Origin: an uncultured Muribaculaceae bacterium
GTDB taxonomy: Bacteria > Bacillota_I > Bacilli_A > RF39 > UBA660
Direction: 5' to 3'
NCBI GenBank assembly: GCA_964369845.1
Contig: CAYJFJ010000003.1
Location: forward strand, 2,563-66,562
Length of the DNA stretch: 64,000 bases
Below are positions 7,470 through 62,764 of this stretch, in pieces. Numbering within the stretch: the first letter of the stretch is position 1; each line of letters opens with the position of its first letter. The notes under the pieces are model-generated. The model worked only from the letters and a program-made list of their open reading frames with translations. It was not told where the DNA came from and ran no database searches. The translations under genes and the position numbers were made by a program.

Positions 7470-7518
7470 TTTACTATCCTCTATTTATATTATAAGTTAC
7501 TTTTTTTTTTTAAGCAAG

Positions 7519-7543: not shown

Positions 7544-7562
7544 TTGATTCAAATAGTCTTAT

Positions 7563-12327: not shown

Positions 12328-13209
12328 TTACTCTTCTTCTTCATTTTTAGAATAATATGGTTTTATTAAACTTTCTGTTTTGAATATATAATCTAATTTT
12401 CTTCTGATGTTTTTTGTGTTCTCAAATTCTTTTAAATCAAAAGTTATTTTGTCTGGTAAACTTATTAGTATAAACATAAGTTTTTTTTCTTGTTTTGATA
12501 AAGGAAATCTTGAATCATAATAATTTAATATTTGACTAAATTCAAGATTTAAATAATCATTTTTATAAAACTGCACTATATCTAAAATTGGTGTATCTAT
12601 TTTATAGTTATCCCAGCTAACTAATTTGTCTTCATCTGCTTTTAAAAAATGTTTAATTGATAAATTATTATGTACAATTGATACTCTTTCTTTTTTTTCG
12701 TCTTTTACTATGTCATACCAATTTTCCAGTTCTGCTTCACAAAAGTCTAAAACTTCTTTAATTTTATAATAATTTTTTATAAATAAATATTTAGATGGAG
12801 ACATATATTTTTCTTTAAAGATCATTTCAAATAAATTATCGTAGTAATTTTTGTAATAGTTTATATTTGATATTATATTTTCGTATATTTCTTTATATTT
12901 ATCAGCATTTACTTCCTTAAAGTAACTTGTTTTGTGATGAAGTATGGTTACTAGGTTTATTAAATCACTTGCTTTTTGCTCTGCTGGCATTTCAGTATCT
13001 TCAATGTATTCATAAACATTTATTTGTCTTCTGCTATCATCAATTATTTCAGGATAAGATACAAAGCCTCTACTTTTTAAATAGCTATATAAACCTTTAA
13101 TGTTTATTCCATCTTTTTTTTCTTTTAATACATATTTTCCTTGATTTGTTTCTATTATTGTTACTTTACCTTTTATCGTGTGCCTGTAAGCTGAGACAAC
13201 ATTATTCAT
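12328..13209 (-). CDS. CotS-family / YsxE-like spore coat kinase-fold protein
   Basis: 293 aa. Composition and layout resemble the CotS/YsxE family. Overlaps and follows a SpoVID-like gene, matching the spoVID-ysxE operon arrangement of B. subtilis. Confidence 0.5.
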   Translation of the reverse strand: MNNVVSAYRHTIKGKVTIIETNQGKYVLKEKKDGINIKGLYSYLKSRGFVSYPEIIDDSRRQINVYEYIEDTEMPAEQKASDLINLVTILHHKTSYFKEVNADKYKEIYENIISNINYYKNYYDNLFEMIFKEKYMSPSKYLFIKNYYKIKEVLDFCEAELENWYDIVKDEKKERVSIVHNNLSIKHFLKADEDKLVSWDNYKIDTPILDIVQFYKNDYLNLEFSQILNYYDSRFPLSKQEKKLMFILISLPDKITFDLKEFENTKNIRRKLDYIFKTESLIKPYYSKNEEEE

Positions 13210-13891
13210 CTTCTGCTATTAATATTTTTTCTCCAACTAAAAATTTCGAATCTATATTATAACTTTGTAATTCTATTTCTGTTTTTCCATATAACTTACA
13301 TAAAGTCTCTATAGTTTCTTCTTCTTTAACTAAATGCACTTTGTAACTAATATAACTATCTTCATTGCTTTTTGCAAAGGAAAGTATATTACTTTTATTT
13401 TCTTCATTTATTAGTGATACATCTTCAGCGCTATTTTCATTAGTAATTACTTCTATTTCTTCAGCGAATATATCACTATCTCTTCCTTTTTCACTTTCTC
13501 TAAGTTCTTCTAGAATAACTTCTTTTATATTTGATGGTTCTTCTTCAAATATACTTTCTTTTTCTTCTGGTTTTTCTTCTGCTTTTATAATGTAATCTAT
13601 ATCTACTTTTAGTGTATTTGGTTTTATAACTTCATATGTGAAATTATCTATATTAAATTCTAATGTTGATTCTTCTACACTTTCTTTTAAACTTAAATCA
13701 AATGGTAGTGTGAATGAAAAATTTTCAGTGTTTACACTTACTTCATGTGTTTTATAACTTCCAAAGATTATAAAATTACCTAATACAACATTTTCACTAA
13801 CGTTATATTCATGTTCTAGTGATATACTACTTACCTCTCCAATATTAGTTTTAAAATCCACATTTTTAGTAAATGGTACTATACAATTCAT
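13202..13891 (-). CDS. spoVID: SpoVID-like spore coat morphogenetic protein (N-terminal SpoVID-type domain, acidic linker, C-terminal LysM)
   Basis: N-terminus (EVSSISLEHEYNVSENVVLGNFIIFGSYK ... EFNIDNFTYEV) resembles the SpoVID N-domain. The middle is Glu-rich. C-terminal LysM-like segment YKVHLVKEEETIETLCKLYGKTEIELQSYN...VGEKILI. Confidence 0.6.
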   Translation of the reverse strand: MNCIVPFTKNVDFKTNIGEVSSISLEHEYNVSENVVLGNFIIFGSYKTHEVSVNTENFSFTLPFDLSLKESVEESTLEFNIDNFTYEVIKPNTLKVDIDYIIKAEEKPEEKESIFEEEPSNIKEVILEELRESEKGRDSDIFAEEIEVITNENSAEDVSLINEENKSNILSFAKSNEDSYISYKVHLVKEEETIETLCKLYGKTEIELQSYNIDSKFLVGEKILIAEDE

Positions 13892-13960
13892 AAAATTCCT
13901 CCTATAAAAAAATATTCTTTGATTTTGTTTTTATTACAAAAAAAACAACTTTTTTCAAAG

Positions 13961-15331
13961 TTATTTTGCAATTTTCTTTACTATATCTAAGAATTTACAT
14001 GAAGCCGATGCTTTTACTAATATATTGTCTTTTTCTTGTTTCATTTTGTTTATGAAACTAATTGCTTCATTATTGTTTTTAAAATGATGACTATTATCTT
14101 TAGTTAAACCTAATTTTTCTGCTTCTTCATTTATTAAATTAGTGTACTCACCAACAGTGACTAAAACGTCGATGTTATTTTCAACTATATTTTCTCCTAA
14201 GTTTTTATGCATTACTTCGGATAAATCTCCTAATTCTTTCATTGTACCTAAACAAGCAATTTTTCTTCCTTCAAAAGATGCTAAATGTTTAATTGCATAT
14301 TCCATTGCATCGTAATTTGCATTGTAAGCATCATTTATGTAATTTATTCCTTTACTTTCAATTAATTCCATTCGGTTACTACTAAGTTCTAGTTTAGCTA
14401 CTCCATTTTTAATTTCTTTAGCATTAACACCATATACTTTAGTTACTGCTATAGCAGCAAGTGTATTATATAAATAATGTTCTCCTGGAATTGGTACTGT
14501 GATTTTTTCTCCTTCAAAAACAAACTTTGTGTATTTTGAGTTGTATGTAACACTACTTGGCATTATATCACTTTCAGTGCTAATTCCGTACGTAATGATA
14601 TTATATTTTTCTTTATTATTAGTAGCCCATTCATTTAATAAATCATCATCGTTATTTATTACTACTGGTCCACCGTTTTGTAAAGCTTCTAATATTTCCA
14701 GTTTAGCTTTTAATATATTTTCTCTGCTTCCTAAATTACCAATATGAGCTGTTCCGATATTAGTCAAAACTACAGCATTTGGTTTTGCTATATTAGTTAG
14801 GTAACTGATTTCATTAAAATGATTCATTCCCATTTCTAAAACAGCTATATCTTCATCTTTTAAATTAAGTAACGTTGTTGGTAAACCTAAATGATTATTT
14901 TTGTTACCTAATGTTTTAAAAGCATTGTATTTTTCTTTTAATATACTATGTATTATATCTTTTGTACTCGTTTTGCCAGCTGAACCTGTTACCGCTATTA
15001 CGGGTAATGTACATGAAGATTTTTTGTAAACTGCCATTTGTCTTAAAGCTTCTTGTGTGTTTTCCACTACAATTAAAGTCTTATTATTATCTTCTAAATA
15101 TTTTACATCTTCTTGTGATGGCGTTACACCACTAACAACTGCACATATACTACCTTTTTCCATTGCGTTTTTATAAAAATCATTTCCATTAAAACTCTCT
15201 CCAATGATTCCTATATATAAACTTTCATTTTTTATAACTCTCGAATCGATGCTAAAACTTGTTACCATCAAATCTTTTTTGTTATATACTGTAACATAAT
15301 CCATATTATTTAACATGTCAAGTATATTCAT
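13961..15331 (-). CDS. murF: UDP-N-acetylmuramoyl-tripeptide--D-alanyl-D-alanine ligase
   Basis: 456 aa Mur ligase: VIAVTGSAGKTSTKD P-loop, middle and C-terminal Mur ligase domains, MurF-like N-terminus (SIDSRVIK). Confidence 0.9.
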   Translation of the reverse strand: MNILDMLNNMDYVTVYNKKDLMVTSFSIDSRVIKNESLYIGIIGESFNGNDFYKNAMEKGSICAVVSGVTPSQEDVKYLEDNNKTLIVVENTQEALRQMAVYKKSSCTLPVIAVTGSAGKTSTKDIIHSILKEKYNAFKTLGNKNNHLGLPTTLLNLKDEDIAVLEMGMNHFNEISYLTNIAKPNAVVLTNIGTAHIGNLGSRENILKAKLEILEALQNGGPVVINNDDDLLNEWATNNKEKYNIITYGISTESDIMPSSVTYNSKYTKFVFEGEKITVPIPGEHYLYNTLAAIAVTKVYGVNAKEIKNGVAKLELSSNRMELIESKGINYINDAYNANYDAMEYAIKHLASFEGRKIACLGTMKELGDLSEVMHKNLGENIVENNIDVLVTVGEYTNLINEEAEKLGLTKDNSHHFKNNNEAISFINKMKQEKDNILVKASASCKFLDIVKKIAK

Positions 15332-15345
15332 AAACTCACACCTTT

Positions 15346-17616
15346 CTAAGAAAATAAATCACTATATATTTCCTCATAATTCTTTACGAATTTTATTTTT
15401 ATTTCACTCAAATATTTTTCGGGCACTTCCACTATATCAAATGAATTTTCAAAAGGCAAGTATAAAACATTAATTTTATTATTAATGGCTGCTATTACCT
15501 TTTCTTTGATTCCACCAACTTTCATTATTTTTCCACTTAATGTAAGTTCTCCAGTAAATGCAGTTCTTGAGTCTACTTCTTTACCTAAACTTAATGATAA
15601 TAATGCTGTTGTAATACTTACTCCCGCTGATGGACCATCTTTTTTTGTTGCTGCTTCTAGGAAATGTAAATGTATATCATTTTTACTAAAATCTACTTTA
15701 TAATTTGATTTTAAATATGTAAGAGCTACTTTTATAGATTCATCCATAACTTGTCCTACCATACCTGTAATTACTACATTTCCTTGACCTTTATTTTTTA
15801 TTACTTCTACTTTGGTTAATATACCACCAAGCTGTGTATATGCAAGTAAATTAATCGTTCCTATTTGATTTATTAATTCTATGCCACAAGATTCATATTT
15901 TGCATTTCCTAAGTAAGTTTTTAAACTTTTTGCTGTTATACTCTTTTCATTATTAATTAATGCTTTTCTTACTAACTTTTTAAGTGTGTTATCTAAATTT
16001 CTAACTCCAGCTTCTTTTGTATAATTGTTTATTATATTTATTAAAACATCATTTGTAATAGATATTTTGGCATTTTTTAAATCGTATTCATCAAATATCT
16101 TAGGTAATATGTATTTTTTAGCAATATTTACTTTTTCATAAAATGTATAACTGTTTATTTTCATTATCTCTAGTCTATCTAATAGAGCATAAGGTATATT
16201 CTCATATTCATTTGCAGTTAAAATAAATAATACTTTAGATAAATCAAATTCTTCTTCAATATAATTATCAATAAACATACTGTTTTGTGATTCATCTAAA
16301 ATTTCTAAAAGAGTACTTGCAGGATCTCCCTTATAATTTTTAACCATTTTATCTACTTCATCTATTAATATAACAGGATTTTTTGCTTTACATCTTTTTA
16401 TTCCTTGAATAATTTTACCTGGATTTGCCCCTAGATATGTTCTTCTTGAACCAATTAATTCAGTTGAATCACTTAAACCCCCAACGGATATTTTATAAAA
16501 CTCTCTATTTAAAGCTTTTGCAATTGATTTTGCAATACTTGTTTTACCTACTCCAGGTGGACCTACTAAACATATAATAGGTGTTTTAATATTTTTACTA
16601 ATTGTTTTAAGTTCAGCGTATTCATATATACGCTCTTTTACTTCACTTAAGCCGTAATGTGAATTTTCTAAATGTTTTTTTATTTCAATCGTAGATGTTG
16701 TATCTTTTGTCTCGAAACTCCATGGTAAATTTATTACTGTATCTATATAATTTTTTAAAACGCTAGCTTCAGGTGACTCTTCGCTTGTAAAAGATAATTT
16801 TTCTATTTCTTTTTTTAATTTATCTTTTGTTTTTTCACTTACTTTAAGATTATTTAACTTTACTTCAAAACTTTTAACTTCTTCATCTTTAATGCTAGTT
16901 TCTCCTAGTTCAATTTTAATTTCATCTAGTTTTTCTTTTAAATAGTATTTTTTTTCTTTTTCAAGCAATTTTTTTCTGATAGATTCTTCTATTTCTTCTT
17001 CTATTTTTAATATTTCTATTTCTTCTTCAATATCTTCAAGTAGATTTTTACTTCTATCTACGGGGTTTATTTGCTGCATATATTCAAGTTTTTTTGATAT
17101 ATTAAATGGTAAAAATGATGCTATTATATCAGATGTTTTATTCAAATCTGTTGCTTTTTCTATTTTTGCTAAAATGGTATTGGAACTATTATCGTTCATT
17201 TTTACCCATTTTTTTATTGATTCTTTTAGTTTCTTTAGTAAAGCTGACTCTACTTTAGTATCAAACTTTGGAAGCGTTATTACAGTTGTAGCTGCTATTA
17301 AATTACTTTTTTCTTTATTGTCATAAAAATATTTTTGTACAACAACTCTTTCTAGTCCTTTTAATATTACTCTAGTGTTTGAATTTGGTAATTCTATTTT
17401 GTTTTTTATGTGCGCAATTACTCCGATTTTTGGTAAATCATCTACATTTGGGTTAGATTCCTTCTGATCAAGCGGAGCTACTACTAATACTTTTCCCTCA
17501 TTTAAATCTATAGATTTTTTTATTACGTTTTTACTTACTTCTGATATTAAATCGACTTTAACTTCTTGTCCAGGGAGGATAATTAATTCTTTTAAGAGTA
17601 TAACTTCATGATTCAT
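15346..17616 (-). CDS. lon: ATP-dependent Lon protease (LonA type)
   Basis: LON N-domain, AAA+ Walker A GPPGVGKTS, Walker B ILIDEVDK, protease Ser motif DGPSAGV. The start is placed at MNHEV (17616) because a GGAGG RBS precedes it. The ORF-track start at 17694 looks like an upstream extension. Confidence 0.92.
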   Translation of the reverse strand: MNHEVILLKELIILPGQEVKVDLISEVSKNVIKKSIDLNEGKVLVVAPLDQKESNPNVDDLPKIGVIAHIKNKIELPNSNTRVILKGLERVVVQKYFYDNKEKSNLIAATTVITLPKFDTKVESALLKKLKESIKKWVKMNDNSSNTILAKIEKATDLNKTSDIIASFLPFNISKKLEYMQQINPVDRSKNLLEDIEEEIEILKIEEEIEESIRKKLLEKEKKYYLKEKLDEIKIELGETSIKDEEVKSFEVKLNNLKVSEKTKDKLKKEIEKLSFTSEESPEASVLKNYIDTVINLPWSFETKDTTSTIEIKKHLENSHYGLSEVKERIYEYAELKTISKNIKTPIICLVGPPGVGKTSIAKSIAKALNREFYKISVGGLSDSTELIGSRRTYLGANPGKIIQGIKRCKAKNPVILIDEVDKMVKNYKGDPASTLLEILDESQNSMFIDNYIEEEFDLSKVLFILTANEYENIPYALLDRLEIMKINSYTFYEKVNIAKKYILPKIFDEYDLKNAKISITNDVLINIINNYTKEAGVRNLDNTLKKLVRKALINNEKSITAKSLKTYLGNAKYESCGIELINQIGTINLLAYTQLGGILTKVEVIKNKGQGNVVITGMVGQVMDESIKVALTYLKSNYKVDFSKNDIHLHFLEAATKKDGPSAGVSITTALLSLSLGKEVDSRTAFTGELTLSGKIMKVGGIKEKVIAAINNKINVLYLPFENSFDIVEVPEKYLSEIKIKFVKNYEEIYSDLFS

Positions 17617-26797: not shown

Positions 26798-26807
26798 AAT
26801 TTACAAT

Positions 26808-26891: not shown

Positions 26892-26898
26892 ATTACAA

Positions 26899-27097: not shown

Positions 27098-28297
27098 ATG
27101 AAAAAAATTATTTTTACTATATTAATACTGTTTATTCCACTTGGAGTAAATGCTTTGGATATTAAATCCACTAACTATTTATTATATAATGAAACAGATG
27201 GAACTGTTCTTCTTGAACAAAATTCCGAGGAAAAAGATTATGTTGCAAGCCTTACTAAAATTGCTACTGCAATTGTAGCTATAGAAAATATTGATAATAT
27301 TCATGAGACTGTTGTTATTCCTCAAGAAGGACTTGCAGGACTTAGCGAAGCTAATGCATCTGTTGCTGGTTTTAGATTAGGTCAGGTTGTTACATATGAA
27401 GATTTACTTTATGGACTTATGCTTCCTAGTGGTGGTGATGCTGCTCAAACTCTTGCTTTTTTATTAGTTGGTAGTAATGAAGAATTTGTTAATCTTATGA
27501 ATAAGTTTGTATTGTCTTTAGGACTTGAAAATACTAATTTTGAAAACACTACTGGATTGTATGATGAAAACCACTACTCTACTGTAAGTGATATGCTTGA
27601 AATATTGAAATACGCTCTTAATAATGATACTTTCAAAGAAATATTTACTAGTGAAAAATATTTAACTTCTGATACTTCTATTACTTTTAAAAATTCATTT
27701 GTTACAATTAATGAAATTCAAAATTTGACTAACGAACATATTTTAGGTGGTAAAACTGGTTATATTAATCAAGCTGGATTTTGTTTTGCAAGCATCGCTA
27801 CGATAAATGACATTGATTATATATTAATTACTACTGGAGCTGATGCTACTACTGGTGATGCACTTCATATAATGGATGCTCATAATATATATTCTTATGT
27901 TGAAGAAACATTTAAGTACATATATCCTTATAAAGAAGATGATATACTTGGCTATATAGATGTAAAGTATAGTGACATATATCAATATACTATTAAAGCT
28001 ACCGATACGTTTCAATTTCTAACCGATACATCACTTGAAAAAGAAGATTTTACTTTTAATTATATTGGAGATGATTTTATTACTCCTGAAACAAAAAGTG
28101 GGAAAGTTGGCATTATTGAAGTTGTTTACAATAATAAAGTTATACATACTACTGATGTAATTTATGATGGATCAGTTAACTACTCTTTTGAAGGACTTGT
28201 TGAAGTGTACTGGCAAAATATTTTAGTTTCCGTAGTATTTATAATTATAATACTAATAACTTTGTTTAAAGTTAAAAATGAAAAAAGAAAAAACTAG
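27098..28297 (+). CDS. Serine-type D-alanyl-D-alanine carboxypeptidase (PBP5/DacB-like, peptidase S11) with C-terminal membrane anchor
   Basis: Signal peptide, SxxK (ASLTKIAT), SxN-like (LPSGGDAA), KTG (GGKTGY), and a C-terminal TM followed by basic residues. Confidence 0.8.
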   Translation: MKKIIFTILILFIPLGVNALDIKSTNYLLYNETDGTVLLEQNSEEKDYVASLTKIATAIVAIENIDNIHETVVIPQEGLAGLSEANASVAGFRLGQVVTYEDLLYGLMLPSGGDAAQTLAFLLVGSNEEFVNLMNKFVLSLGLENTNFENTTGLYDENHYSTVSDMLEILKYALNNDTFKEIFTSEKYLTSDTSITFKNSFVTINEIQNLTNEHILGGKTGYINQAGFCFASIATINDIDYILITTGADATTGDALHIMDAHNIYSYVEETFKYIYPYKEDDILGYIDVKYSDIYQYTIKATDTFQFLTDTSLEKEDFTFNYIGDDFITPETKSGKVGIIEVVYNNKVIHTTDVIYDGSVNYSFEGLVEVYWQNILVSVVFIIIILITLFKVKNEKRKN

Positions 28298-28317
28298 ATG
28301 AAATTTCATCTAGTTTT
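28290..28317. terminator. Bidirectional hairpin between convergent genes
   Basis: AAAACTAGATGAAATTTCATCTAGTTTT is a perfect long palindrome flanked by A- and T-runs. It overlaps the carboxypeptidase stop and abuts the stop of ORF 28318..28746. Confidence 0.55.
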
Positions 28318-28746
28318 TTACTTTATTTTACTAACTCCTATTTTGATTACTGCTTTACCTTTACTAACTTCGCTTAAATCTTTTAATAATAAATTGTTTT
28401 CTTTTTCCATTTTTGTAAGCTGATATTCCAATGATTTAATAGCTTCAGTCATTTTACTTGCACATATTAAAGGTACTAGTGACAATACTATAGATGTTGC
28501 TTTATGTAGTGTGCCTTCTGTCGGCGCTAAAACTAAAACATTCGTTAATACTATAGAAAATATTATATCTATCGTTGCTAAGATTTTTCTTTGTTTTATG
28601 TTGGATAAATTTAATGATTTCTTCATTAAATTATAACTTATTTTATCTTTTACTATTTCTACCGCTTCTAATATTTGTAATTTTTCTTCTTCTGTAATAT
28701 TCATACGAAATGCTGTTGTAGATTTCATTTTATATTTGTTTATCAC
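28318..28746 (-). CDS. Hypothetical small membrane protein (coiled-coil / 2 TM / coiled-coil)
   Basis: 142 aa with two hydrophobic helices (ILATIDIIFSIVLTNVLVLA, SIVLSLVPLICA) flanked by charged helical segments. Confidence 0.45.
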   Translation of the reverse strand: MINKYKMKSTTAFRMNITEEEKLQILEAVEIVKDKISYNLMKKSLNLSNIKQRKILATIDIIFSIVLTNVLVLAPTEGTLHKATSIVLSLVPLICASKMTEAIKSLEYQLTKMEKENNLLLKDLSEVSKGKAVIKIGVSKIK

Positions 28747-50135: not shown

Positions 50136-50154
50136 TTCTTTTAATCCTTCATTT

Positions 50155-50697: not shown

Positions 50698-50711
50698 GTT
50701 TCATCCTTTCA

Positions 50712-51194: not shown

Positions 51195-51202
51195 AATAGT
51201 CC

Positions 51203-51619: not shown

Positions 51620-51642
51620 TACTTCTCCTATTTTGATTATTT

Positions 51643-52104: not shown

Positions 52105-52109
52105 ATAAC

Positions 52110-52664: not shown

Positions 52665-52666
52665 AA

Positions 52667-53151: not shown

Positions 53152-53166
53152 TATTTTTCCTCATAC

Positions 53167-53655
53167 CTAACTAATAACTTTATTAACTGTTTGCTCAATT
53201 GTTAATTTGCTTGAATCTATAATATATTCTTCACTGTATTTTGCATCTATGAACTCTTTTAAAAGTACAAGTGATCTTTTTCCCATTTGGCAATCCACTG
53301 GCCTTTTTTTATCTCTTCTTATTATAGTATCTTCATCTACTATAAGAACTCTAAAAATGATTTCATAATTATTAAATTTACTTTTTATTTCTTCAAATTC
53401 TTCTGGTTTAATTATATAATTAAATACTACATCGTACCCATTTTCCAAATATGAGTTAATTAATAAAAAAGAATTTTTCCAAAATAAATCTAGCGGCGCA
53501 TCATCAAGCCATGGACTAACTCTTCCTCCTACGAAAAAATTATAAACTGTATCTCCTTCAATCATAACTGATTTTTCTAAAGTTTCAGCTATTTTTTCAC
53601 TGATGGTACTTTTACCAACTCCCGCTGGGCCTGTAATTATATATAATTTATTCAT
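53167..53655 (-). CDS. P-loop kinase / AAA-type ATP-binding protein
   Basis: MNKLYIITGPAGVGKSTISEKIA Walker A, 162 aa. Small-molecule or nucleotide kinase-like size. Confidence 0.5.
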   Translation of the reverse strand: MNKLYIITGPAGVGKSTISEKIAETLEKSVMIEGDTVYNFFVGGRVSPWLDDAPLDLFWKNSFLLINSYLENGYDVVFNYIIKPEEFEEIKSKFNNYEIIFRVLIVDEDTIIRRDKKRPVDCQMGKRSLVLLKEFIDAKYSEEYIIDSSKLTIEQTVNKVIS

Positions 53656-53676
53656 TATTACCTCCTAATTTTATTT

Positions 53677-54159
53677 TTAATCTCTATGAATTTTTTGAAC
53701 TAATATATCACTTTTTATGACTTCTAAAATGAATTTAGGTTCTACACTATACTTATTTAAATCACTTAGATTAATCCATTCAAAATATTGTTCATCACCA
53801 TATTTAAGTTCTTTACTGTTTATGATATTTTTCGAATAATCAATTTCGGAAATTATTTGAAGTTTGCTTATAAAAAGTAATTCATGTCTATTTTTCTTAT
53901 CAAAATCTGAAAAAAAGAAATTTTCTATAATACCTTTAGTTTCTAAATGTATTGTATTTAGACCTAGTTCTTCTTTAATTTCTCTTACTATTGCTTCTTC
54001 TGAAGTTTCATTCAAAGAACATTTTCCTCCAGGAAGTGTTATAAAATCAAAATGCTTATTTCTTTGCATCAATATTTTATTTTCATTAATAATTATTGCT
54101 GCAGTCCTATATGTGAAATTTACATTATCTGTTTTTATTTTAATATCCATTTTTCTCAC
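53677..54159 (-). CDS. NUDIX hydrolase
   Basis: NUDIX box LPGGKCSLNETSEEAIVREIKEELGL. Confidence 0.75.
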   Translation of the reverse strand: MRKMDIKIKTDNVNFTYRTAAIIINENKILMQRNKHFDFITLPGGKCSLNETSEEAIVREIKEELGLNTIHLETKGIIENFFFSDFDKKNRHELLFISKLQIISEIDYSKNIINSKELKYGDEQYFEWINLSDLNKYSVEPKFILEVIKSDILVQKIHRD

Positions 54160-54682
54160 TCCTTATATAATATTCTAATATATACTTATCTCTAGCAACT
54201 ATAAATTTACTATGGTATAAATTTTCGTATTTGCTTTCTTTTAAGTTTTTTATACAGTTGCTTATTTTTTTCAAACCTTCTTCTGGTGATAGCCACAAAT
54301 AACTACCACCTTCATCTTTTTCCTTTTGTGTTAAACTTAATTGACCTGTATCTTTTATTACTTTCGACAAAAATACATATGACTTTTGAATGAAATTATC
54401 CTGACTTTTTTGTTCTTCTATTATTCCCAGTTTTTTTGTTATTTCAACTACTAATCCAGTTTCTTCTAACACTTCTCTAATAAATGCCTCTTCTGGCGTT
54501 TCTTTAAAATCAATTCCACCACCAGGCAATTTATATTCGTTTTTGTTCTTTTTGTGAAAAATTGCTATTTGATTCAAATTATTTAATATTATTCCTCTAG
54601 CTGCTATTCTAATTTTCGGTTCTTTAAATATTTTTGTTTCTAAATTAAAATAGCTATCATCTATTACTTTATTCAAACTCAT
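54140..54682 (-). CDS. NUDIX hydrolase
   Basis: NUDIX box LPGGGIDFKETPEEAFIREVLEETGL. Confidence 0.75.
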   Translation of the reverse strand: MSLNKVIDDSYFNLETKIFKEPKIRIAARGIILNNLNQIAIFHKKNKNEYKLPGGGIDFKETPEEAFIREVLEETGLVVEITKKLGIIEEQKSQDNFIQKSYVFLSKVIKDTGQLSLTQKEKDEGGSYLWLSPEEGLKKISNCIKNLKESKYENLYHSKFIVARDKYILEYYIRSEKNGY

Positions 54683-54751: not shown

Positions 54752-55867
54752 CTATAAAACAAATGCTATTAATGTGTTTGATCCTTTATTTACTATTTTT
54801 GTCATCGTATCTCCTAATTTATATCTTGTATTGTCTGGCATCATACTAAGTTTTGCTTTTATACCTTCACCTACAACTGTTTCAAGGGATCTTCCAAATA
54901 TTTCGCTTTTCCAAATATTACTTGGGTCTGATTCGTAATCTTTCATTAAATGATCAATTAATTCTTTTGATTGAAGTTCTGTTCCTATGATAGGTTCAAA
55001 TGTTGATTCAACATCTACTCTTACCAGATGTATAGAAGATGCTACTGCTTTTAATTTTACACCATATCTAGAACCTTGTTTGATAATTTCTGGTGGAGTT
55101 AATTTCATGTCCATCGTTCCAGGATACATTATGCCATAACCTGTTGATTTTGCCATTTTGAGAGCATCTTTAACTCTTTCAAATTCATCTTTTCCATCTT
55201 TATATGATGAAAACATTTTTATTAAACTTGCTTTATTCATTACTGCTTCACCTAATAAATCTTTAAGTGTTTCGTTATATAATTCTTCTGAGCTTTCTAA
55301 GTTTATTGTTACTACTCCAGTAGCAGCATCTAAAGATGATATATAAGTATTATTTATATAACTACTTTCTTTAAAATAATTTATAACATCGTCTATATCT
55401 TTTACTTTTTCTACATTAGTAATGCTACCTTTCATCATTTCTAAATAATGTTTTTTTATTTCACTTTCTTTTGATAATGCATGTATCCATTCTGGAATAC
55501 TCATTTTAATATCTAATACTGGAAATTCATAAAGCGCAGCTTTTAAAATTTCCATAATATCTTTTTCATTCATTTTATCTACTGCAACTGGCATTACAGG
55601 TACATTATATCTTTCAGACATATCTTGTGATAAATTAATAGCACTTTCACTTGTAGGATTATTTGTATTTAATATTACAATAAATGGTTTTCCTATATCT
55701 TCAAGCTCACCAATAACTTTTTCTTCTGCATCAATATATGCTTCTCTTTTAATATCGCCAAAAGATCCATCTGTTGTAACTACTATACCTATTGTAGCAT
55801 GGTCCTTAATAACTTTTTCTGTACCCATTTCAGCTGCCTCAACAAATGTTATAGGCTCATCATACCA
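54752..55867 (-). CDS. spoIVA: Stage IV sporulation protein A, 3' segment of a split gene (codons ~123-492)
   Basis: ORF 54752..55828 (MGTEKVIKDHATIGIVVTTDGSFGDI ... KIVNKGSNTLIAFVL) is colinear with the SpoIVA middle and C-terminal domains. The same frame stays open upstream to 55891 (GYHDFITYW YDEPITFVEAAE), and YDEPITFVEAAEMGTEKVIKDH aligns with B. subtilis YEEPIPFHEAAEIGTRKVIQEH. Confidence 0.92.
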   Translation of the reverse strand, partial: WYDEPITFVEAAEMGTEKVIKDHATIGIVVTTDGSFGDIKREAYIDAEEKVIGELEDIGKPFIVILNTNNPTSESAINLSQDMSERYNVPVMPVAVDKMNEKDIMEILKAALYEFPVLDIKMSIPEWIHALSKESEIKKHYLEMMKGSITNVEKVKDIDDVINYFKESSYINNTYISSLDAATGVVTINLESSEELYNETLKDLLGEAVMNKASLIKMFSSYKDGKDEFERVKDALKMAKSTGYGIMYPGTMDMKLTPPEIIKQGSRYGVKLKAVASSIHLVRVDVESTFEPIIGTELQSKELIDHLMKDYESDPSNIWKSEIFGRSLETVVGEGIKAKLSMMPDNTRYKLGDTMTKIVNKGSNTLIAFVL

Positions 55868-55890
55868 GTAGGTTATGAAATCGTGATACC
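55863..55890. repeat. Element end / recombination site (spoIVA-3'-proximal junction)
   Basis: Plus strand TACCA|GTAGGTTATGAAATCGTGATACC. TACCA is repeated at 61137..61141. GTAGGTT-N8-GTGATACC is the inverted copy of 61117..61139. The recombinase stop codon starts 2 nt beyond it (55892). Confidence 0.75.
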
Positions 55891-55891
55891 C

Positions 55892-57487
55892 CTAGGCAAG
55901 AAAATTATCACAAGTCTTGACTCTGAATATTATCTCCACTTGTTTATCTTTTGTTATATATATTTTTTCAATTATTTTGTTTATCATCTCTTTTGTTGGA
56001 TTTTCCATATTTAAAAAACTTTTTACTATCATTTTATAATTTTCTAACTCTGAATTATTTTCTAAAACTGTATACTTCTCTTTCTCATAATCTATTAAAG
56101 ATATTTTAAGGTCAGCTATTTCTTTTTCTGTAGCCATATTCATTCTTTGAAATCTTTCAGCAGTTATTAAACCTTCAACTTTATCATCATATAAATTGTC
56201 AATTTTTATCTCTAATTTTTCGATTTTCTTTTTTGCTTCACTTATTAACTTATTAAGAGGTCCTAAAGGATCTTTTTTATTTGTTTCAAGATAATCAATA
56301 AATTCTTTAGAATCTAAATTTGCACATAGTTCTCTAACCTTATTATATATAGTCTTTTCTAACTTTTCATAACTAACATGATGAGAAAAGCAAATATTGT
56401 GTGCACTATACTTTCTATAAGTATTACAGTTCATACTTGTTCTATCTCTTTTCTTACAGTAACTAATACCCATTCTAGCATCGCAATCTTTACAAAATAC
56501 TAAATTACCTAAAATGTATTCAACATTTCTTCTTGTTTCGCTATAAACATTAGATTTATTGCGAAGTCTAACTGCCCTTTTAAATGTTTCTTCATCTATT
56601 ATAGGTTCCATCGCATTTTCTATAACAATCCATTCTTCTTTAGGTTTAGTTATTCTTTTTTTTGATTTATAGTTTAAATTCATACCTTTATTTTGAACTA
56701 ATTTGCCCGTGTACATTTCATTTTTTAAAATATTACATAATGATGTATGCTTCCATATATGTGGATACTCTAATTTTTCTGCTCTTGAATTCGTTTTTTG
56801 ATGCATTATGGGAGTTGGTATTTTTTCTTTTGTTAGTAAATTAGCTATAACTTTTGTTCCATAACCTGAAACATAGAGTTCAAATATTCTTTTAACAACT
56901 GGAGCAGCGACTGGATCTATTATTAATTTGTGCTTATCTTCTGGATCTTTCATATAACCATATGGACAAGTTCCTCCAATAAATTTTCCTGCTTGCCTCA
57001 TCGCCATAATAGCTGATTTCACTTTTTTTGATATATCTTTTGCATACATATCATTCATACCTAATCTAAACGGCATCATATCAGCACCATCACATTTATC
57101 ATTGAATGTATCTATATTATCGTTAACAGCTATATATCTAACTTTCTTATCTGGAAAGTATTTTTCAATATAATAACCTGTCTCAATGTAATCTCTACCT
57201 AACCTTGATAAATCTTTAGTTACTATCATATTTATTTTACCAAGTTCAATATCTCTAATTAACCTTTTAAATCCAGGTCTATTAAAATTAAGTCCAGAAA
57301 ATCCATCATCTATATAAGTATCAACTATTTCAAAATTTTCTCCTAAACTATTAATGAAGTTTGTTAAAAGTAATCTTTGGTTAGATACACTTTCTGATTC
57401 TATATCATCTCCATCTTCTCTTGATAGTCTTATGGATAATCCGACTTTGTAAGTCTTATTATCAATTATATATTTGCTTGTAAACAC
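55892..57487 (-). CDS. Large serine recombinase (SpoIVCA/SprA-like)
   Basis: 531 aa, GTG start behind an AAGGAGG RBS. Resolvase catalytic domain (VGLSIRLSREDG, YIDDGFSG, VTKDLSRLGRD), recombinase domain, Cys-rich zinc-ribbon region (CKDCDARM...CNTYRKY) and a C-terminal coiled coil. Confidence 0.93.
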   Translation of the reverse strand: MFTSKYIIDNKTYKVGLSIRLSREDGDDIESESVSNQRLLLTNFINSLGENFEIVDTYIDDGFSGLNFNRPGFKRLIRDIELGKINMIVTKDLSRLGRDYIETGYYIEKYFPDKKVRYIAVNDNIDTFNDKCDGADMMPFRLGMNDMYAKDISKKVKSAIMAMRQAGKFIGGTCPYGYMKDPEDKHKLIIDPVAAPVVKRIFELYVSGYGTKVIANLLTKEKIPTPIMHQKTNSRAEKLEYPHIWKHTSLCNILKNEMYTGKLVQNKGMNLNYKSKKRITKPKEEWIVIENAMEPIIDEETFKRAVRLRNKSNVYSETRRNVEYILGNLVFCKDCDARMGISYCKKRDRTSMNCNTYRKYSAHNICFSHHVSYEKLEKTIYNKVRELCANLDSKEFIDYLETNKKDPLGPLNKLISEAKKKIEKLEIKIDNLYDDKVEGLITAERFQRMNMATEKEIADLKISLIDYEKEKYTVLENNSELENYKMIVKSFLNMENPTKEMINKIIEKIYITKDKQVEIIFRVKTCDNFLA

Positions 57488-57515
57488 TTATCCTCCTTTT
57501 AAAAATTTTAGTTTA

Positions 57516-57623
57516 TTAACTTTTATATATAAATCTTTTTTCATAGTAAGAAAAAATACAAGGTTTTAAAACATCTTTCAATTTACTACCGTTTTCATTA
57601 AAAAAGCAAATTGTTTCATACAT
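57516..57623 (-). CDS. 35-codon ORF directly upstream of the recombinase (speculative accessory/directionality factor)
   Basis: Own translation MYETICFFNENGSKLKDVLKPCIFSYYEKRFIYKS. A strong AAAGGAGA RBS lies 6 nt upstream, and the ORF ends 28 nt before the recombinase GTG. There is no homology evidence and it may not be expressed. Confidence 0.3.
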   Translation of the reverse strand: MYETICFFNENGSKLKDVLKPCIFSYYEKRFIYKS

Positions 57624-57921
57624 ATTTTTATCTCCTTTTAATTATTTAATTTTATTAACACAAAAAAAATATATTCCAACTCTGAATATATTTTTAATAT
57701 ACATATTTTTAATTATCTAACATTTAAAACAAATTCTGTTAATGAGTTTTTTATGTAACATTTTTCAGATGGTATATTTAAATATCTAATTAGACCACAT
57801 AATGTGATAGTTATCTATTAGAAATTACCTTTTTTTTTACTAAATTTTGAATATCATATTTATCTCTGGTGTTACTTAAAAATATTAAATTCTAAATGTT
57901 CTTCATTTAATTATTTTCTTG

Positions 57922-58983
57922 TTATTCACTTTTAAATAATTTGATAGGAGATATTTTAAGTATTTTTTTATATCCGATATAACTAATTAGTAATAATATT
58001 GTTACTAAAGTTATATATGAAATAATCAACGAACTAATTAAATTTATCAAAGAAAAATAAATTTGTATGTCCTCAAATATAATAAATATCATACAGTATA
58101 TACACATCACTAAAACATTAATTATTAAATACAACTTTGTAATTTTTTTTAGTAAAGCTTCTATAACTAATTTTATAATAGCTATATTTCGAAATCCGCT
58201 AGTTTTTAATATTGCTATATCGTATTTATACTCATTAATCATAAAACTAATAATAAATCCTATAATAAATATCAAAAATGTAGACACTACTAAAATACCT
58301 AATTTCACATAATTTATGATATTAGTAAACAGTTCTATATCTGTAATTCCAGAGCTATCATTCATATACATACTAAGTCCTTCTTTTTCCAATAATGAGT
58401 TGAATTTTTCTATATTATCATAATCATCTATTATTACTTTAAATTCATTAGCATTTTTTAACGCGTACATTTGCATAATATTTTCAGAAACTATTATTTT
58501 GTTAAAACCTACTTTTTCATCGTTATATTCTGATATTATTTCTAATTTTAGAATTTGATTTCCAACTTCAAGATTTATATAATCTCCAACATCTTTATTT
58601 AGTGATTTTGGAACTATTGCTTCGATATTGGATATTTTATTAAACTCACTATAGTAATTAACTTCGTATACTTTGCTGTTTTCTTTAAATAATAAATCTT
58701 CATATGAATCATATATGCCATTTATATATTTTGAAGTTTCGAAATGATTTTTGTAGCTTTCTATTATTAATTCATTTTCACTGTATTCTTCAAAATGCAC
58801 ATTTAAAACTCTATTTTGTATTTTATTTTTTATTGAAATATTATAGTAATTATTTAAATAAGTTAAACTAGATAATAATATTACGAAAGATAATATAAAA
58901 ATTGCAAATACACCCGATTTTTCATTGTATTTCTTTGACTGAAAATAAAACGTCCTATTCATCTTTTTTAACCAACCCTTCAA
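57922..58983 (-). CDS. FtsX/MacB-type ABC transporter permease (4 TM with extracytoplasmic domain)
   Basis: 353 aa. TM1 (VFAIFILSFVILLSSLTYL), an extracytoplasmic domain of about 170 aa, then three C-terminal TMs. Overlaps the upstream permease gene by 29 nt. Confidence 0.7.
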   Translation of the reverse strand: MKGWLKKMNRTFYFQSKKYNEKSGVFAIFILSFVILLSSLTYLNNYYNISIKNKIQNRVLNVHFEEYSENELIIESYKNHFETSKYINGIYDSYEDLLFKENSKVYEVNYYSEFNKISNIEAIVPKSLNKDVGDYINLEVGNQILKLEIISEYNDEKVGFNKIIVSENIMQMYALKNANEFKVIIDDYDNIEKFNSLLEKEGLSMYMNDSSGITDIELFTNIINYVKLGILVVSTFLIFIIGFIISFMINEYKYDIAILKTSGFRNIAIIKLVIEALLKKITKLYLIINVLVMCIYCMIFIIFEDIQIYFSLINLISSLIISYITLVTILLLISYIGYKKILKISPIKLFKSE

Positions 58984-60184
58984 TTATAGTTGAATTTGTT
59001 AATTTTCCATTAACTTTTTTAGTTGTTAAATTAAGCGAAACAAAAATCAATAATATTGAAAATATAATAGACTCTATCGAAATTACTATAGGAATTTTTA
59101 AAAATAAATATGGTCTATAGAAAATAAGTATGTTATAAATCACATAAATAGTGATGATAATTATTAATAGAATCATAGTAATAATTAAAGCTAAAAAATT
59201 ATTTTCAAATATATTCAGTTTTACCAAATCTCTTTTTCTAAAACCGACAGTTCTCAAAATATTGAATTTACTTAATGAATTATTTATGTCTTTCATATAT
59301 ATATTGTTAATTATAATTAGTGAGAATATTAAAGATACTGCTAAAATAATATATATTATAATATTTACTATACTAATAATCTTTGAATTTACATAAGTTA
59401 CTCTTGATGCTGTTAACTCTAAATCAATAATTTGCTCTATCACCGTTTCTACATTATCTGTATTATCAACTTGTACTATTATTGAAGATAACTGATTTTC
59501 AATATCTATATACTTAAAACTTTCTTCATTTATTGTTTGTACTAATAAATTATTTACATAACATTTATTTTCATCTGAGTAATAGGAATTATTATCAAAA
59601 GTTCCGACAATCGTTAATTTTTTAGATATTGTATTCACTTCAAATAAGTTTTCATCTACATACTGGTTATAAGAAATATCTATGTTAGTTCCTATAAATT
59701 TTGTCATATCTATAAAATCATTATTAGTTAAGTTGGTTATTTCTTCTAAATTATCCTCAGGATAAAATCTACTTGGACATATGACTTCATTATCATTTTC
59801 TATATTTTTTCCTTGAGACACTTTAGGTCTTGTTTTTTCATTGGATCCTAATAACCAAAAATCTCCTTTAAAATGTTCGTGGTTTATGTTTGCTGTAATA
59901 TAAAACTCATTATCCAAAATAACATTGTCTACATGTTTTAGTTCTTCTAAATTTTTTATAGTTTCTTCTTCCGACATAATTTTTTCGTTTACATCTACAT
60001 AAATGCTTCTATACCAAATATCTTCTTTTATTCCTTTATTTATGTATGTATCCATGGTACTTTTAAACGAAAATGAAGATATTAAAAGTAAAGATATACA
60101 AATTAATATTATTATTATTTTCTTCTTTTCTTTACCTTTGTAACTATTTTTGCAACCATAATCTTTAAATATACTATTATTCAT
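58955..60184 (-). CDS. FtsX/MacB-type ABC transporter permease (4 TM with large extracytoplasmic domain)
   Basis: 409 aa. TM1 (IIIILICISLLLISSFSF), an extracytoplasmic domain of about 230 aa, then three C-terminal TMs with the FtsX-like TVGFRKRDL loop. Overlaps the ATPase gene by 8 nt. Confidence 0.72.
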   Translation of the reverse strand: MNNSIFKDYGCKNSYKGKEKKKIIIILICISLLLISSFSFKSTMDTYINKGIKEDIWYRSIYVDVNEKIMSEEETIKNLEELKHVDNVILDNEFYITANINHEHFKGDFWLLGSNEKTRPKVSQGKNIENDNEVICPSRFYPEDNLEEITNLTNNDFIDMTKFIGTNIDISYNQYVDENLFEVNTISKKLTIVGTFDNNSYYSDENKCYVNNLLVQTINEESFKYIDIENQLSSIIVQVDNTDNVETVIEQIIDLELTASRVTYVNSKIISIVNIIIYIILAVSLIFSLIIINNIYMKDINNSLSKFNILRTVGFRKRDLVKLNIFENNFLALIITMILLIIIITIYVIYNILIFYRPYLFLKIPIVISIESIIFSILLIFVSLNLTTKKVNGKLTNSTIIEGLVKKDE

Positions 60185-60860
60185 ACATTTCTTCTTTCAG
60201 TTTACCTTTTTCCATCTTTAATATTTTATCTGCATATTTTGCATTAGATGTATTGTGACTAACAACTATTACGCATTTGCCATTTTTGGCTAAATCATTT
60301 AATATTTTCATTATTATTTTTTCATTATTTTCATCTAGGTTACCAGTTGGCTCATCTGCTAGAATGATGGACGGATCATTAACTAAAGCTCTTGCAATGG
60401 CAATTCTTTGTTGCTCTCCACCTGATAATTCATTAGGAAAGTGATTTTTTCTATTTTCTAATCCCACTAGTTTTAATAATTTCAAAACTTTTTCTTCTCT
60501 AGATTTAGAATCCATTTCTTTATTGAGATACAATGGAATTAAAATATTTTGAAAAGCAGTTAAAGAATTATTGAGATAATAAGATTGAAATACAAACCCT
60601 ATATGTTTTTTTCTTAAATCTGCTAGTTTGTTTTCATTTAAATTAATTACTTTTTCCTCTATAATTGAAATATCTCCACTTGTAAATTCATCTAAAGTAG
60701 CCATACAATGCAGTAAAGTTGACTTACCTGATCCACTATTTCCCAGTATTAAATATAAATTATTATTACTGAAACTATAATTTATTCCATCAACTGCTCT
60801 TATTATACTTTTATCTTTTTCGTAAATCTTTTCACAATTTTTCAATTCTATAAAATTCAT
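60177..60860 (-). CDS. ABC transporter ATP-binding protein (MacB/LolD-like)
   Basis: Walker [11 protein letters not shown]-loop, signature LSGGEQQR, Walker [13 protein letters not shown]-loop VVSHN. GGAGG RBS. Confidence 0.92.
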
Positions 60861-60916
60861 AAATCCTCCGACATTATATTAAATTCATTTAATATAATAC
60901 TCTTATTTTAACAAAC

Positions 60917-60947
60917 AAAAAGCCACATAAAATTTATGCAACTTTTT
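60917..60947 (-). terminator. Hairpin with flanking U-run in the ABC operon leader (possible attenuator/terminator)
   Basis: Plus strand AAAAAGCCACATAAAATTTATGCAACTTTTT. It has 6 outer and 6 inner base pairs around a 3x3 internal mismatch. On the minus RNA it is followed by UGUUUGUU. It overlaps the stop of the 24-codon ORF. Confidence 0.3.
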
Positions 60948-61020
60948 AGGTTTGAAAGATAGTTGAATTTAATTGCAAAAACATTTTTCTTGTACAGTTA
61001 TTGTGATATATTAAATTCAT
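60946..61020 (-). CDS. 24-codon leader ORF upstream of the ABC operon (speculative)
   Basis: Own translation MNLIYHNNCTRKMFLQLNSTIFQT, with an AGGAGA RBS 8 nt upstream, located between the candidate promoter and the hairpin. No further support. Confidence 0.2.
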   Translation of the reverse strand: MNLIYHNNCTRKMFLQLNSTIFQT

Positions 61021-61040
61021 AACTATCATCTCCTGAATTT

Positions 61041-61069
61041 AATCTATCATTTTTTATTATCTTTGTCAA
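61041..61069 (-). promoter_or_regulatory. Candidate sigma-A-type promoter for the element's ABC operon
   Basis: Minus strand TTGACA (61064..61069), 17 nt, TAGATT (61041..61046). A perfect -35, optimal spacing and a moderate -10. Such matches are less specific in AT-rich DNA. Confidence 0.35.
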
Positions 61070-61116
61070 TATACATAGCTTGCCATATAAGGATATATAT
61101 TATAGTTCCCTCTTGA

Positions 61117-61141
61117 GGTATCACTAATTAACAACCTACCA
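61117..61141. repeat. Element end / recombination site (spoIVA-5'-proximal junction)
   Basis: Plus strand GGTATCACTAATTAACAACCTAC|CA. This is an inverted copy of 55868..55890, matching at 7+8 outer positions with a different 8-nt spacer. TACCA lies at 61137..61141. Confidence 0.75.
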
Positions 61142-61513
61142 TGGACTCTTAACCATCCTAGGATTTCCTTCTTCATCTGTAAAACCATTTGCCTCTGGTA
61201 CTACGTAACCTACGCAATCAACTAATTTTATTTTAGTTGAGAATTCACCTACTTTAATTTCTGCACCACTTGAAGGCACAAATTTAGGTTCTGTTGTCAT
61301 AATAGTTTTTCCTTCAGCACTTTGAGGGATTTCATCTAGACATTTTTTCTTTTCATATTCATCAGTAATATTAGGTACCACTAAATTTTCAATAAATCTT
61401 TTTATAAATGTAGATTTACCAGTTCTAACAGCACCTACTACTCCTAAATATATTTCTCCATTTCCCTTTTTAGATATTGAAGAAATTATTTGTTCTTTAT
61501 TCATAAACACCAA
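61136..61513 (-). CDS. spoIVA: Stage IV sporulation protein A, 5' segment of a split gene (codons 1-~122, Walker A region)
   Basis: GEIYLGVVGAVRTGKSTFIKRF...QSAEGKTIMTTEPKFVP...KLVDCVGYVVPEANGF...GNPRMVKSPW* is colinear with the B. subtilis SpoIVA N-terminus (GDIYLGVVGAVRTGKSTFIKKF...NGPRMINTPW). The TAG stop (61136..61138) is supplied by the first bases of the element. The likely true start is ATG at 61504 (MNKEQ). Confidence 0.92.
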   Translation of the reverse strand: MVFMNKEQIISSISKKGNGEIYLGVVGAVRTGKSTFIKRFIENLVVPNITDEYEKKKCLDEIPQSAEGKTIMTTEPKFVPSSGAEIKVGEFSTKIKLVDCVGYVVPEANGFTDEEGNPRMVKSPW

Positions 61514-62521: not shown

Positions 62522-62764
62522 TTAAAACATTTTTTCTACATTATTAGGTACTTTATCTTCTACTATCTTATTTACTATTTTATCTATTTGTTCATCTGAT
62601 ACTTTTTTACCTGTAACTTTGCTAAGTGTTCCTATTATTTCTTTAATAGTACCTTCATCTTTCATATTACCATTTTGCAATTTTTCTGCTAGTGATAAAA
62701 TTGTATCTTTTTTTACACTTGTTTTATTTTCAATTTTTTTAAAAAGTTCATCGTTTAATTTCAT
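62522..62764 (-). CDS. spoVIF: SpoVIF (YjcC)-like small sporulation protein
   Basis: 80 aa. LFKKIENKTSVKKDTILSLAEKLQNGNMKDEGTIKEII resembles the B. subtilis SpoVIF N-terminus (FFKNIEKKTGV...LAGSLQNANFKDENT), as recalled. Confidence 0.55.
   Translation of the reverse strand: MKLNDELFKKIENKTSVKKDTILSLAEKLQNGNMKDEGTIKEIIGTLSKVTGKKVSDEQIDKIVNKIVEDKVPNNVEKMF

Follow-up and report, generated by a model that had tools for sequence, protein, structure and literature searches.

A serine recombinase element splits spoIVA in an uncultured bacterium and is a likely sporulation-gene-intervening element

Is the sporulation gene spoIVA, when found in two pieces on either side of a recombinase-encoding element, a broken gene or an interrupted gene that can be rejoined? 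The question is raised by a stretch of 64,000 nucleotides (the window) from contig CAYJFJ010000003.1 of assembly GCA_964369845.1, the genome of an uncultured bacterium. In this window spoIVA lies on the minus strand and is split after its Trp125 codon by an element of 5,274 bp at 55868..61141 (equivalently 55866..61139), which has a G+C content of 23.5% versus 26% for the window. In Bacillus subtilis and Clostridium difficile, spoIVA is a sigma-E-dependent mother-cell gene; it encodes the ATPase that lays the foundation of the spore coat in the mother cell. Published sigma-E targets include spoIVA (PMC5025042). We consider it likely that the element is a small, non-phage, integrative element that intervenes in a sporulation gene, comparable to skin in sigK and gin in gerE.

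The two gene pieces fit together. The 5' fragment (61139..61513, minus strand) has 125 codons counted from the listed TTG start, although the true start is likely the ATG at 61504 (MNKEQ...). It matches the Pfam family SpoIVA_ATPase (E=1e-51) over profile positions 1-122 of 237. Its C-terminus reads ...MVKSPW and is followed by a TAG at 61136..61138 that is supplied by the element and closes the fragment directly after the Trp codon, as the initial annotation of this DNA had proposed. The 3' fragment (54752..55865, minus strand) consists of 370 codons plus the stop, starts with YDEPITFVEAAE..., and matches SpoIVA_ATPase over profile positions 122-237 as well as SpoIVA_middle and SpoIVA_C. The ATPase profile thus breaks off at 122 in one fragment and resumes at 122 in the other, which points to a seamless join, and joining both fragments in silico gives an open reading frame (ORF) of 495 amino acids (aa).

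The rejoined protein was compared with uninterrupted SpoIVA sequences; identity to the closest intact relatives is 75-79%, with 79% for the best. In one of these (protein P0124 of locus L087; loci found in our searches are denoted by L numbers), the peptide across the junction, NPRMVKSPWYDEPITFVEAAE, is identical to that of the rejoined window protein. At the DNA level the intact L087 allele reads GTCCATGGTATGATGA, 16 bp over the proposed crossover, and over these 16 bp it is identical to the attachment site attB reconstructed for the window. The initial annotation had held that recombination at CA (TG on the gene strand) would restore the gene without a scar. Both the in silico join and the L087 match bear this out, and the uninterrupted allele, which had been named as a check on the predicted crossover, shows the same DNA and peptide with no conflicting sequence.

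The junctions have the form expected for an attL/attR pair. The pentamer TACCA is present at both (55863..55867 and 61137..61141), coordinates that agree base for base with those first given, and the stretch shared by the junctions is 5 bp long and no longer. Read along the plus strand, the sequence is CTCATCA TACCA GTAGGTT ATGAAATC GTGATACC at the left junction and GGTATCAC TAATTAAC AACCTAC CA TGGACTC at the right. In the orientation of the gene, the junction beside the 5' fragment is attL (61117..61164), composed of the element arm GGTATCAC-TAATTAAC-AACCTAC (61117..61139), the core CA (61140..61141), and a host arm (61142..61164). The junction beside the 3' fragment is attR (55843..55890), composed of a host arm (55843..55865), the core CA (55866..55867), and the element arm GTAGGTT-ATGAAATC-GTGATACC (55868..55890). 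The stop codon of the recombinase (55892..55894) lies 1 nt outside the half-site, whose arm ends at 55890, exactly as had been noted.

Joining the element ends gives the 48-mer GGTATCAC-N8-AACCTAC-CA-GTAGGTT-N8-GTGATACC; self-complementarity extends to 38 of its 48 positions, equal to 19 of the 23 arm pairs. These ends therefore hold an attP of about 50 bp (48 bp, 19/23 pairs) with imperfect inverted half-sites around a non-palindromic 2-bp core, CA/TG. The 8-mer and 7-mer blocks are perfect inverted matches, and the N8 spacers pair at 4 of 8 positions; the inverted half-sites described at the outset are real, and the term near-perfect palindrome was generous. When the centre was scanned along the joined ends (45 positions), CA alone reached at least 12 of 24 pairs. 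Of 63,952 positions in the window, a single one, at 28303, attains 19 of 23 pairs, and this is an unrelated hairpin that resembles a terminator. The 64 kb contain one copy each of GGTATCAC and GTGATACC, located precisely at the two element ends. The near-absence of such palindromes and the restriction of the 8-mers to the ends exclude chance.

The enzyme that would act on these sites is encoded at 55892..57487 (minus strand), with a GTG start and an AGGAGG ribosome-binding site. This large serine recombinase of 531 aa matches the Pfam families Resolvase (PF00239, 4e-19), Recombinase (PF07508, 5e-26), and Zn_ribbon_recom (PF13408, 1e-07), and, among the PHROGs, the integrase family PHROG 95 (1.7e-103). 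The best match in the PDB is the catalytic domain of TnpX (2mhc, 4e-29); a phmmer match to SprA (9dxh, 4.5e-17) covers residues 31-497, and residues ~400-480 are heptad-like as judged by eye, a possible coiled-coil motif within the zinc-ribbon domain. A weak NCBIfam match to XisF (2.7e-24) is far under the cut-off. Ser22 (in IRLSRED) aligns with Ser15 of TnpX (in ERLSRDD) and is the predicted catalytic serine; R20, S22, R95, and R98 are invariant among 27 relatives, and the zinc-ribbon cysteines C332, C335, C354, and C366 are invariant among the recombinase relatives. By these assignments the element encodes an intact large serine recombinase.

A protein search with this recombinase returned about 110 clusters at 46-76% identity, two of which have 547 and 567 members. 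Recombinases at least 50% identical to that of the window define a set of 14 loci, among them L001-L010, L089, L090, and L091 (L004 is from a 1-Mb contig). In 14 of 14 the recombinase gene abuts the C-terminal fragment of spoIVA and the junctions lie at the same Trp codon; the N-terminal fragment is found 3.5-11 kb upstream wherever the contig extends far enough. In contrast, none of the roughly 70 loci whose recombinase is at most 45% identical lies beside a split spoIVA, and two are merely near an intact one. The records of the relatives are labelled as genome bins of uncultured 'Bacilli', 'Tenericutes', and 'Clostridia'. The source of the window is itself probably a metagenome-assembled contig, which could make one suspect that the split arose in assembly or binning, or that the inverted repeats are fortuitous. 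The recurrence of this architecture in 14 or more assemblies, independent of one another and drawn from NCBI, ENA, and Logan, together with a palindrome and 8-mers that are unique in the window, makes this scarcely credible.

The sites are conserved with the recombinase. On the gene strand, attP has the form GGTATCAC-N15-TG-N15-GTGATACC in the window, L001 (with one arm ATGATACC), L004, L007, and L089. In L090, whose recombinase is 50% identical, the outer 8-mers are different and the geometry is the same, GGTAGTGC-N15-TG-N15-GCACTACC. L005 and L009 depart from this pattern: in their attL arm the outer 8-mer is separated from the core by 16 bp, one more than the usual 15 (spacing 15/16), which counts against our interpretation. 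The spacing in L005 and L009 and the 8-mers of L090 are predicted natural specificity variants of one site design.

In serine integrases the zinc-ribbon-domain motif lies at positions 16-24 in attP and 11-19 in attB (Rutherford et al. 2013, PMC3783163). In the family described here the outer attP motif GTGATACC is at positions 16-23, and its best match in the right half of attB is at 11-18, 5 bp inward. The copies in the right half of attB read GAGATACC in L004 and L010, GAAATACC in L008, and CCTATAAC in the window, and the motif score averages -3.2 at 11-18 versus -12 to -38 at all other offsets. The left half of attB, which comprises the NPRMVK codons, is without a clear shifted motif. The initial annotation had read the junctions as the attL/attR pair of a large serine recombinase with a 2-bp crossover; the junctions of the relatives, the conserved geometry, and the 5-bp shift lend this support, and the proposal that element ends and host flanks form a canonical attL/attR pair is thus supported at the level of sequence.

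Which two bases are exchanged can be narrowed down by comparison. What attL and attR have in common is TGGTA for the window, TGGT for L001, GTGG for L005, and TGG for L004, L007, L009, and L090. TGG alone is common to all pairs, so the crossover is TG or GG, and TA and AC, which would be allowed if the 5-bp overlap of the window were considered by itself, are excluded. The crossover dinucleotide is very probably TG (CA on the plus strand), because the 5-bp shift rule holds only with TG as the centre: with TG, both 8-mers fall at 16-23 in the window, L001, L004, L007, L089, and L090, and the motif in attB falls at 11-18, a shift of exactly 5 bp towards the centre. A crossover at the last two bases of the Trp codon, GG (CC on the plus strand), is formally allowed by the shared TGG, and the 33 rather than 32 bp between the outer 8-mers of L005 and L009 leave the centre ambiguous in these two loci. 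However, GG as the centre would make the half-sites 16/14, and we regard it as improbable.

The elements have moved between hosts. The recombinases of L006 and L007 are 100% identical and their element ends are identical, versus 67% identity between the SpoIVA C-terminal fragments of the two loci. Similarly, identities of recombinase and SpoIVA fragment are 87% versus 61% for L005 and L009, and 87.5% versus 63% for L007 and L008. Recombinase identity far above that of the host SpoIVA shows that transfer between hosts was recent and that this codon was chosen actively and repeatedly in diverged attB sites. Of 9 loci checked, 8 have a SpoIVA C-terminal fragment that is a complete frame of 371 codons. 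In the ninth, L006, spoIVA is cut again near its 3' end by a second element (L006:8285-15360; spoIVA pieces at 7391-8284 and 15340-15612). An unrelated serine recombinase of 546 aa (13719..15359) abuts the last gene fragment, and the second element also carries a small resolvase-like gene (12613..13215). This second insertion indicates that two recombinase lineages target spoIVA.

More distant recombinases, 36-45% identical and found in L012-L084, adjoin truncated fragments of other genes. A fragment of a SpoVE/FtsW-like gene (profile 231-326 of 354) lies beside the recombinase of L084, fragments of amidase/LysM proteins beside those of L014, L016, and L020, and a LysM protein fragment beside those of L015, L018, L019, L021, L022, L028, and L029. 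ZupT fragments are found in L062, L071, and L080, and a Ca-ATPase fragment in L013. Judged by these neighbours, insertion within genes seems to be a trait of the whole recombinase clade, with several of the targets related to the spore envelope.

Immediately upstream of the window recombinase lies an ORF of 35 aa, MYETICFFNENGSKLKDVLKPCIFSYYEKRFIYKS (57516..57623, minus strand), with an AAGGAG ribosome-binding site; it ends 28 nt ahead of the recombinase start. An ORF of 35-64 aa with the core MYETxEFFxxNGxDLKExLKSCIxxYY occupies this position in 13 family loci with the upstream region examined (the window and L001-L011 by profile, and L089 by a 64-aa gene that ends at the recombinase start). 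In L090 and L091 a 41-aa gene is called there by position, not by sequence comparison. A conserved Ser has a TCN codon in part of the members and an AGY codon in the rest, and variation is greatest at third codon positions, which indicates selection on the small protein. Searches with the ORF against Pfam, PHROGs, NCBIfam, and PDB gave no meaningful match; among searches for homologues, the word-indexed one returned the protein itself alone and the exhaustive one three short relatives. The informative route was synteny combined with a local iterated profile. This profile found the small ORF in 60 of 85 loci, including loci at other targets with recombinases only 36-45% identical (36-76% over all 60). 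Among 23,060 six-frame ORFs there were 61 matches, and 60 of the 61 lie immediately upstream of a recombinase on the same strand. The wider family of small proteins has the consensus KINcFFDENGKDLEEILKESIKNYLKK, and its ORFs end ~0-350 nt upstream of the recombinase, whatever the target gene.

The position of the small ORF mirrors that of skr before spoIVCA and sprB before sprA. In skin and SPbeta the order is attL-rdf-int-attR, and the small gene just upstream of the integrase encodes the directionality factor (PMC6957869). By this analogy the small ORF is a candidate recombination directionality factor, the role that we hold to be the most likely, at about even odds. Speaking against it, the catalytic domain of the recombinase is nearest to that of TnpX, its closest solved relative, which excises without any directionality factor or other accessory protein (PMC5704250), so the small ORF may have another role; moreover, the small protein matches neither a known directionality factor nor any other family. 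The recombinase could then excise and integrate alone, with the small ORF serving some other function, such as that of a regulator, leader peptide, or translational-coupling device. We hold this to be on the unlikely side. The small ORF is conserved at the protein level and keeps its place in 60 of 85 loci irrespective of the recombinase target, in known sporulation elements the gene of the directionality factor directly precedes that of the integrase, and the family is highly site-specific, whereas Tn4451 inserts at many GA sites.

The element has five genes, all in the orientation of spoIVA (minus strand). Besides the recombinase and the small ORF, these encode an ABC transporter ATPase of the LolD/MacB/FtsE type (60177..60860, minus strand; Pfam ABC_tran 1e-30; NCBIfam LolD-like 2e-64, under the curated cut-off), an FtsX-type permease of 409 aa (58955..60184, minus strand; Pfam FtsX 7e-06), and a second membrane protein of 353 aa (57922..58983, minus strand) that has no family match. 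The position of the last and its hydrophobic C-terminal half suggest that it, too, is a permease. An origin from a prophage or defective prophage was considered and rejected: among the element genes only the integrase matches PHROGs. A comparison of the element with 50,697 phage records gave no meaningful match. The cargo differs wholly between members of the family, with giant surface proteins in L001, L004, and L009, a Fic protein in L005, and a MobV relaxase (Mob_Pre) together with a CzcD/CsoR metal-efflux pair in L007; L089 also carries a MobV relaxase. The genes of the window element, in contrast, are the ABC transporter set, the small ORF, and the recombinase only, without a MobV relaxase.

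At 61041-61069 (minus strand), about 180 nt before the ABC ATPase gene, there is a sigma-70-like site, TTGACA-17-TAGATT with an upstream TG, which may be a vegetative promoter of the cargo's own. Sites with a sigma-70 consensus are overall no commoner than in shuffled sequence (70 vs 62.5 +/- 8).

How would such an element behave in its host? In the mechanism that we propose, two recombinase dimers would bind attL and attR and bring them into synapsis. After cutting at the central dinucleotide, which is TG on the gene strand and CA on the plus strand, they would rotate and religate. Excision would release a circle of 5,274 bp carrying the 48-bp attP and leave spoIVA intact and without a scar; the predicted sequences across the excision junctions are ...AGTCCATGGTATGATG... 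and ...AACCTACCAGTAGGTT.... In the sporulating mother cell this would allow SpoIVA to be made, and the forespore chromosome would retain the element. The 35-aa ORF upstream of the recombinase would be the most likely directionality factor. The ABC exporter carried as cargo would have no part in recombination and would probably repay the host for carrying the element.

Expression could come from a promoter of the element's own or by read-through from the spoIVA promoter. No terminator-like site was found inside the element on the minus strand, and all genes of the window element are co-oriented with spoIVA, which makes read-through possible. The element genes are likewise co-oriented with spoIVA in L001, L004, and L005. 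They are not in L007 and L009, and their opposite-strand genes rule out read-through as a general mechanism. Five relatives (L005, L007, L008, L009, and L010) share a motif at 20-30 nt before the small ORF, of the form CATA(A/C)AATT or, more loosely, CATA(A/C/T)(A/G)ATT (CATACAATT in L009). We take this motif to resemble the -10 element of the mother-cell sigma factors of B. subtilis and treat it as a lead only.

Several observations weigh against a developmental role. No sigma-E or sigma-K promoter could be assigned upstream of spoIVA or the small ORF in the window, and the window (~57650) and L001 read AATAAAATT in place of the CATA-type motif. Excised circles were sought in assembled sequence with the attP pattern GGTATCAC-N15-TG-N15-GTGATACC; the search gave 39 metagenome and 4 viral matches, none of them beside a recombinase or spoIVA, and all are thus chance or unrelated coding sequence. 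All hosts are known as uncultured genomes alone, so that sporulation in them is presumed. Some relatives carry a MobV relaxase, and excision may serve transfer, not development.

The last point can be taken further. The element could be an ordinary integrative mobilizable element for which a conserved stretch of spoIVA is a safe landing site, with the gene knocked out and excision used for horizontal transfer only; carriers would then not sporulate, or would do so only after rare stochastic loss of the element. The Mob_Pre relaxases of the relatives, the identical recombinases in different hosts, and the TnpX-like catalytic domain are in keeping with this, as are the lack of an identified sporulation promoter in the window and of an excised form. 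On the other hand, three quarters of a protein that is essential for sporulation are lost through the insertion, and the family is nevertheless abundant (as the clusters of 547 and 567 members show). Both gene fragments are still open in the loci checked, and one host (L006) tolerates two different elements in the same gene. The window host retains other sporulation-type genes, namely YlbJ-like (1e-39), YsxE/CotS-like (1e-28), and SpoVIF (1e-18), all under the curated cut-offs. The characterised elements with the same layout in mother-cell genes all excise during sporulation (PMC5595907, PMC6957869). Weighing these points, we judge a purely mobilizable element to be unlikely. The open fragments, the double insertion, and the kept sporulation genes fit a tolerated interruption that would be reversible, and a sporulation-gene-intervening element remains our preferred interpretation.

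Intervening elements are known in sigK, spoVFB, spoVR, spsM, gerE, and yabG, and a survey of Firmicutes listed 15 skin elements. The closest parallel in layout is skin in sigK of B. subtilis (SpoIVCA and Skr), which also has a large serine recombinase gene at the edge beside the 3' gene fragment and a small ORF immediately upstream of it, in skin the directionality factor gene skr; in both, a mother-cell sporulation gene is interrupted, and the rejoining (predicted for the present element) is precise and in frame (PMC6957869, PMC4191935). However, skin is a defective prophage of 48 kb in the gene of a late sigma factor, whereas the present element has 5.3 kb, no phage genes, and spoIVA, an early structural gene of the sigma-E class, as its target. 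The small protein is without detectable similarity to known families, and sporulation-specific expression is for the present element proposed by analogy. The gin element in gerE of Bacillus cereus ATCC 10987 (GirC and GirX) is likewise a non-prophage element in a sporulation gene, with a serine recombinase, a small accessory factor (here a candidate), and a short overlap at both junctions (PMC5595907). It is, however, 28.6 kb long, carries three recombinase genes, and has another target gene and other att sequences; moreover, its excision and directionality factor are experimental findings, whereas both are predictions here.

With SPbeta in spsM (SprA and SprB), the element shares the unit attL-rdf-int-attR, its rdf being a candidate, and SprA is the closest full-length solved structure (9dxh). 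SPbeta is, in contrast, an active phage of 134 kb, the similarity to SprA is distant (a single phmmer stretch, 4.5e-17), and SprB is unrelated to the small ORF. Tn4451/Tn4453, whose TnpX catalytic domain is the best PDB match (2mhc, 4e-29), are also small non-phage elements with a 2-bp crossover, and Tn4451 encodes a MobV relaxase, as do some relatives of the window element, although the window element itself does not. Tn4451 uses many GA sites with low specificity and no accessory factor (PMC5704250); the family described here uses one site with a TG core, and neither the GA core nor the low specificity was found, the core lying within TGG at a single codon in 14 of 14 loci.

The model for serine integrases developed on the Listeria A118-family integrase (PMC3783163) agrees with the present sites in an attP of ~48-50 bp, a motif at 16-24, a 5-bp shift in attB, and a non-palindromic core. 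The present sites differ from the model in that a clear shifted motif is seen in the right half of attB only, and in the additional base in one arm of two relatives. The yin element (yabG of Clostridium botulinum) and the fdxN element (Anabaena, XisF) are further serine-recombinase elements in genes needed only in a terminally differentiating cell; their targets and hosts are different, yin is a prophage, and XisF requires XisH and XisI. No spoIVA-intervening element was found in the literature searched, whose coverage was incomplete, and an earlier description may exist.

Other features of the window were recorded alongside these. Regions with other sporulation-type genes are at 4589-5503, 12328-13209, 13202-13891, and 62522-62764; the 229-aa ORF at 13202..13891, beside the YsxE-like gene, has no family match. 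Just downstream of spoIVA (49914-54682) there are small ORFs that are acetyltransferase- and NUDIX-like by eye; two adjoining NUDIX-like ORFs are at 53677..54159 and 54140..54682, and L090 also has a NUDIX gene near spoIVA. The strongest palindrome of the window (28280-28327, 19/23 pairs, GAAAAAAGAAAAAACTAGATGAA-AT-TTCATCTAGTTTTTTACTTTATT) lies between the convergent genes 27098..28297 (plus strand) and 28318..28746 (minus strand) and looks like a bidirectional terminator. At 5496-7469 and 40011-40427 (minus strand), several short ORFs have a prepilin-type N-terminus, e.g., MNRKGFAIIETLIVV and MDKKGFTIIELLAVLVV, which points to genes for competence or type IV pseudopilins. Tandem genes for tRNA-Leu(TAG) and tRNA-Met(CAT) at 26807-26975 (minus strand) are the sole Rfam or ARAGORN matches in the window.

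What is new is that spoIVA joins the short list of sporulation genes interrupted by elements predicted to be excisable, by a mechanism that appears canonical for large serine recombinases, and that the elements form an abundant non-phage family with variable cargo and an uncharacterised accessory ORF. To our knowledge, spoIVA is the universally conserved, essential, and earliest-acting structural gene of the coat, and an element in spoIVA would make the onset of spore-envelope assembly depend on a DNA rearrangement. Our fullest reading is tentative: the family, widespread in gut spore-formers, would make SpoIVA synthesis, with which the structural assembly of coat and cortex begins, conditional on excision, with the direction of recombination set by a new family of directionality factors, with a core of ~30 residues, that belongs to the TnpX-like clade. 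If true, the resulting checkpoint would act at an earlier stage of development than that of any known intervening element. The element also explains calls of 'split' or pseudogene spoIVA in genome bins. The 531-aa recombinase, the 48-bp attP, and a defined attB make a compact recombination unit for genome engineering, with natural variants that include a different outer motif in the same geometry, and with a candidate minimal directionality factor. The family is abundant in gut metagenomes and could affect the efficiency of sporulation and thereby the transmission of commensals.

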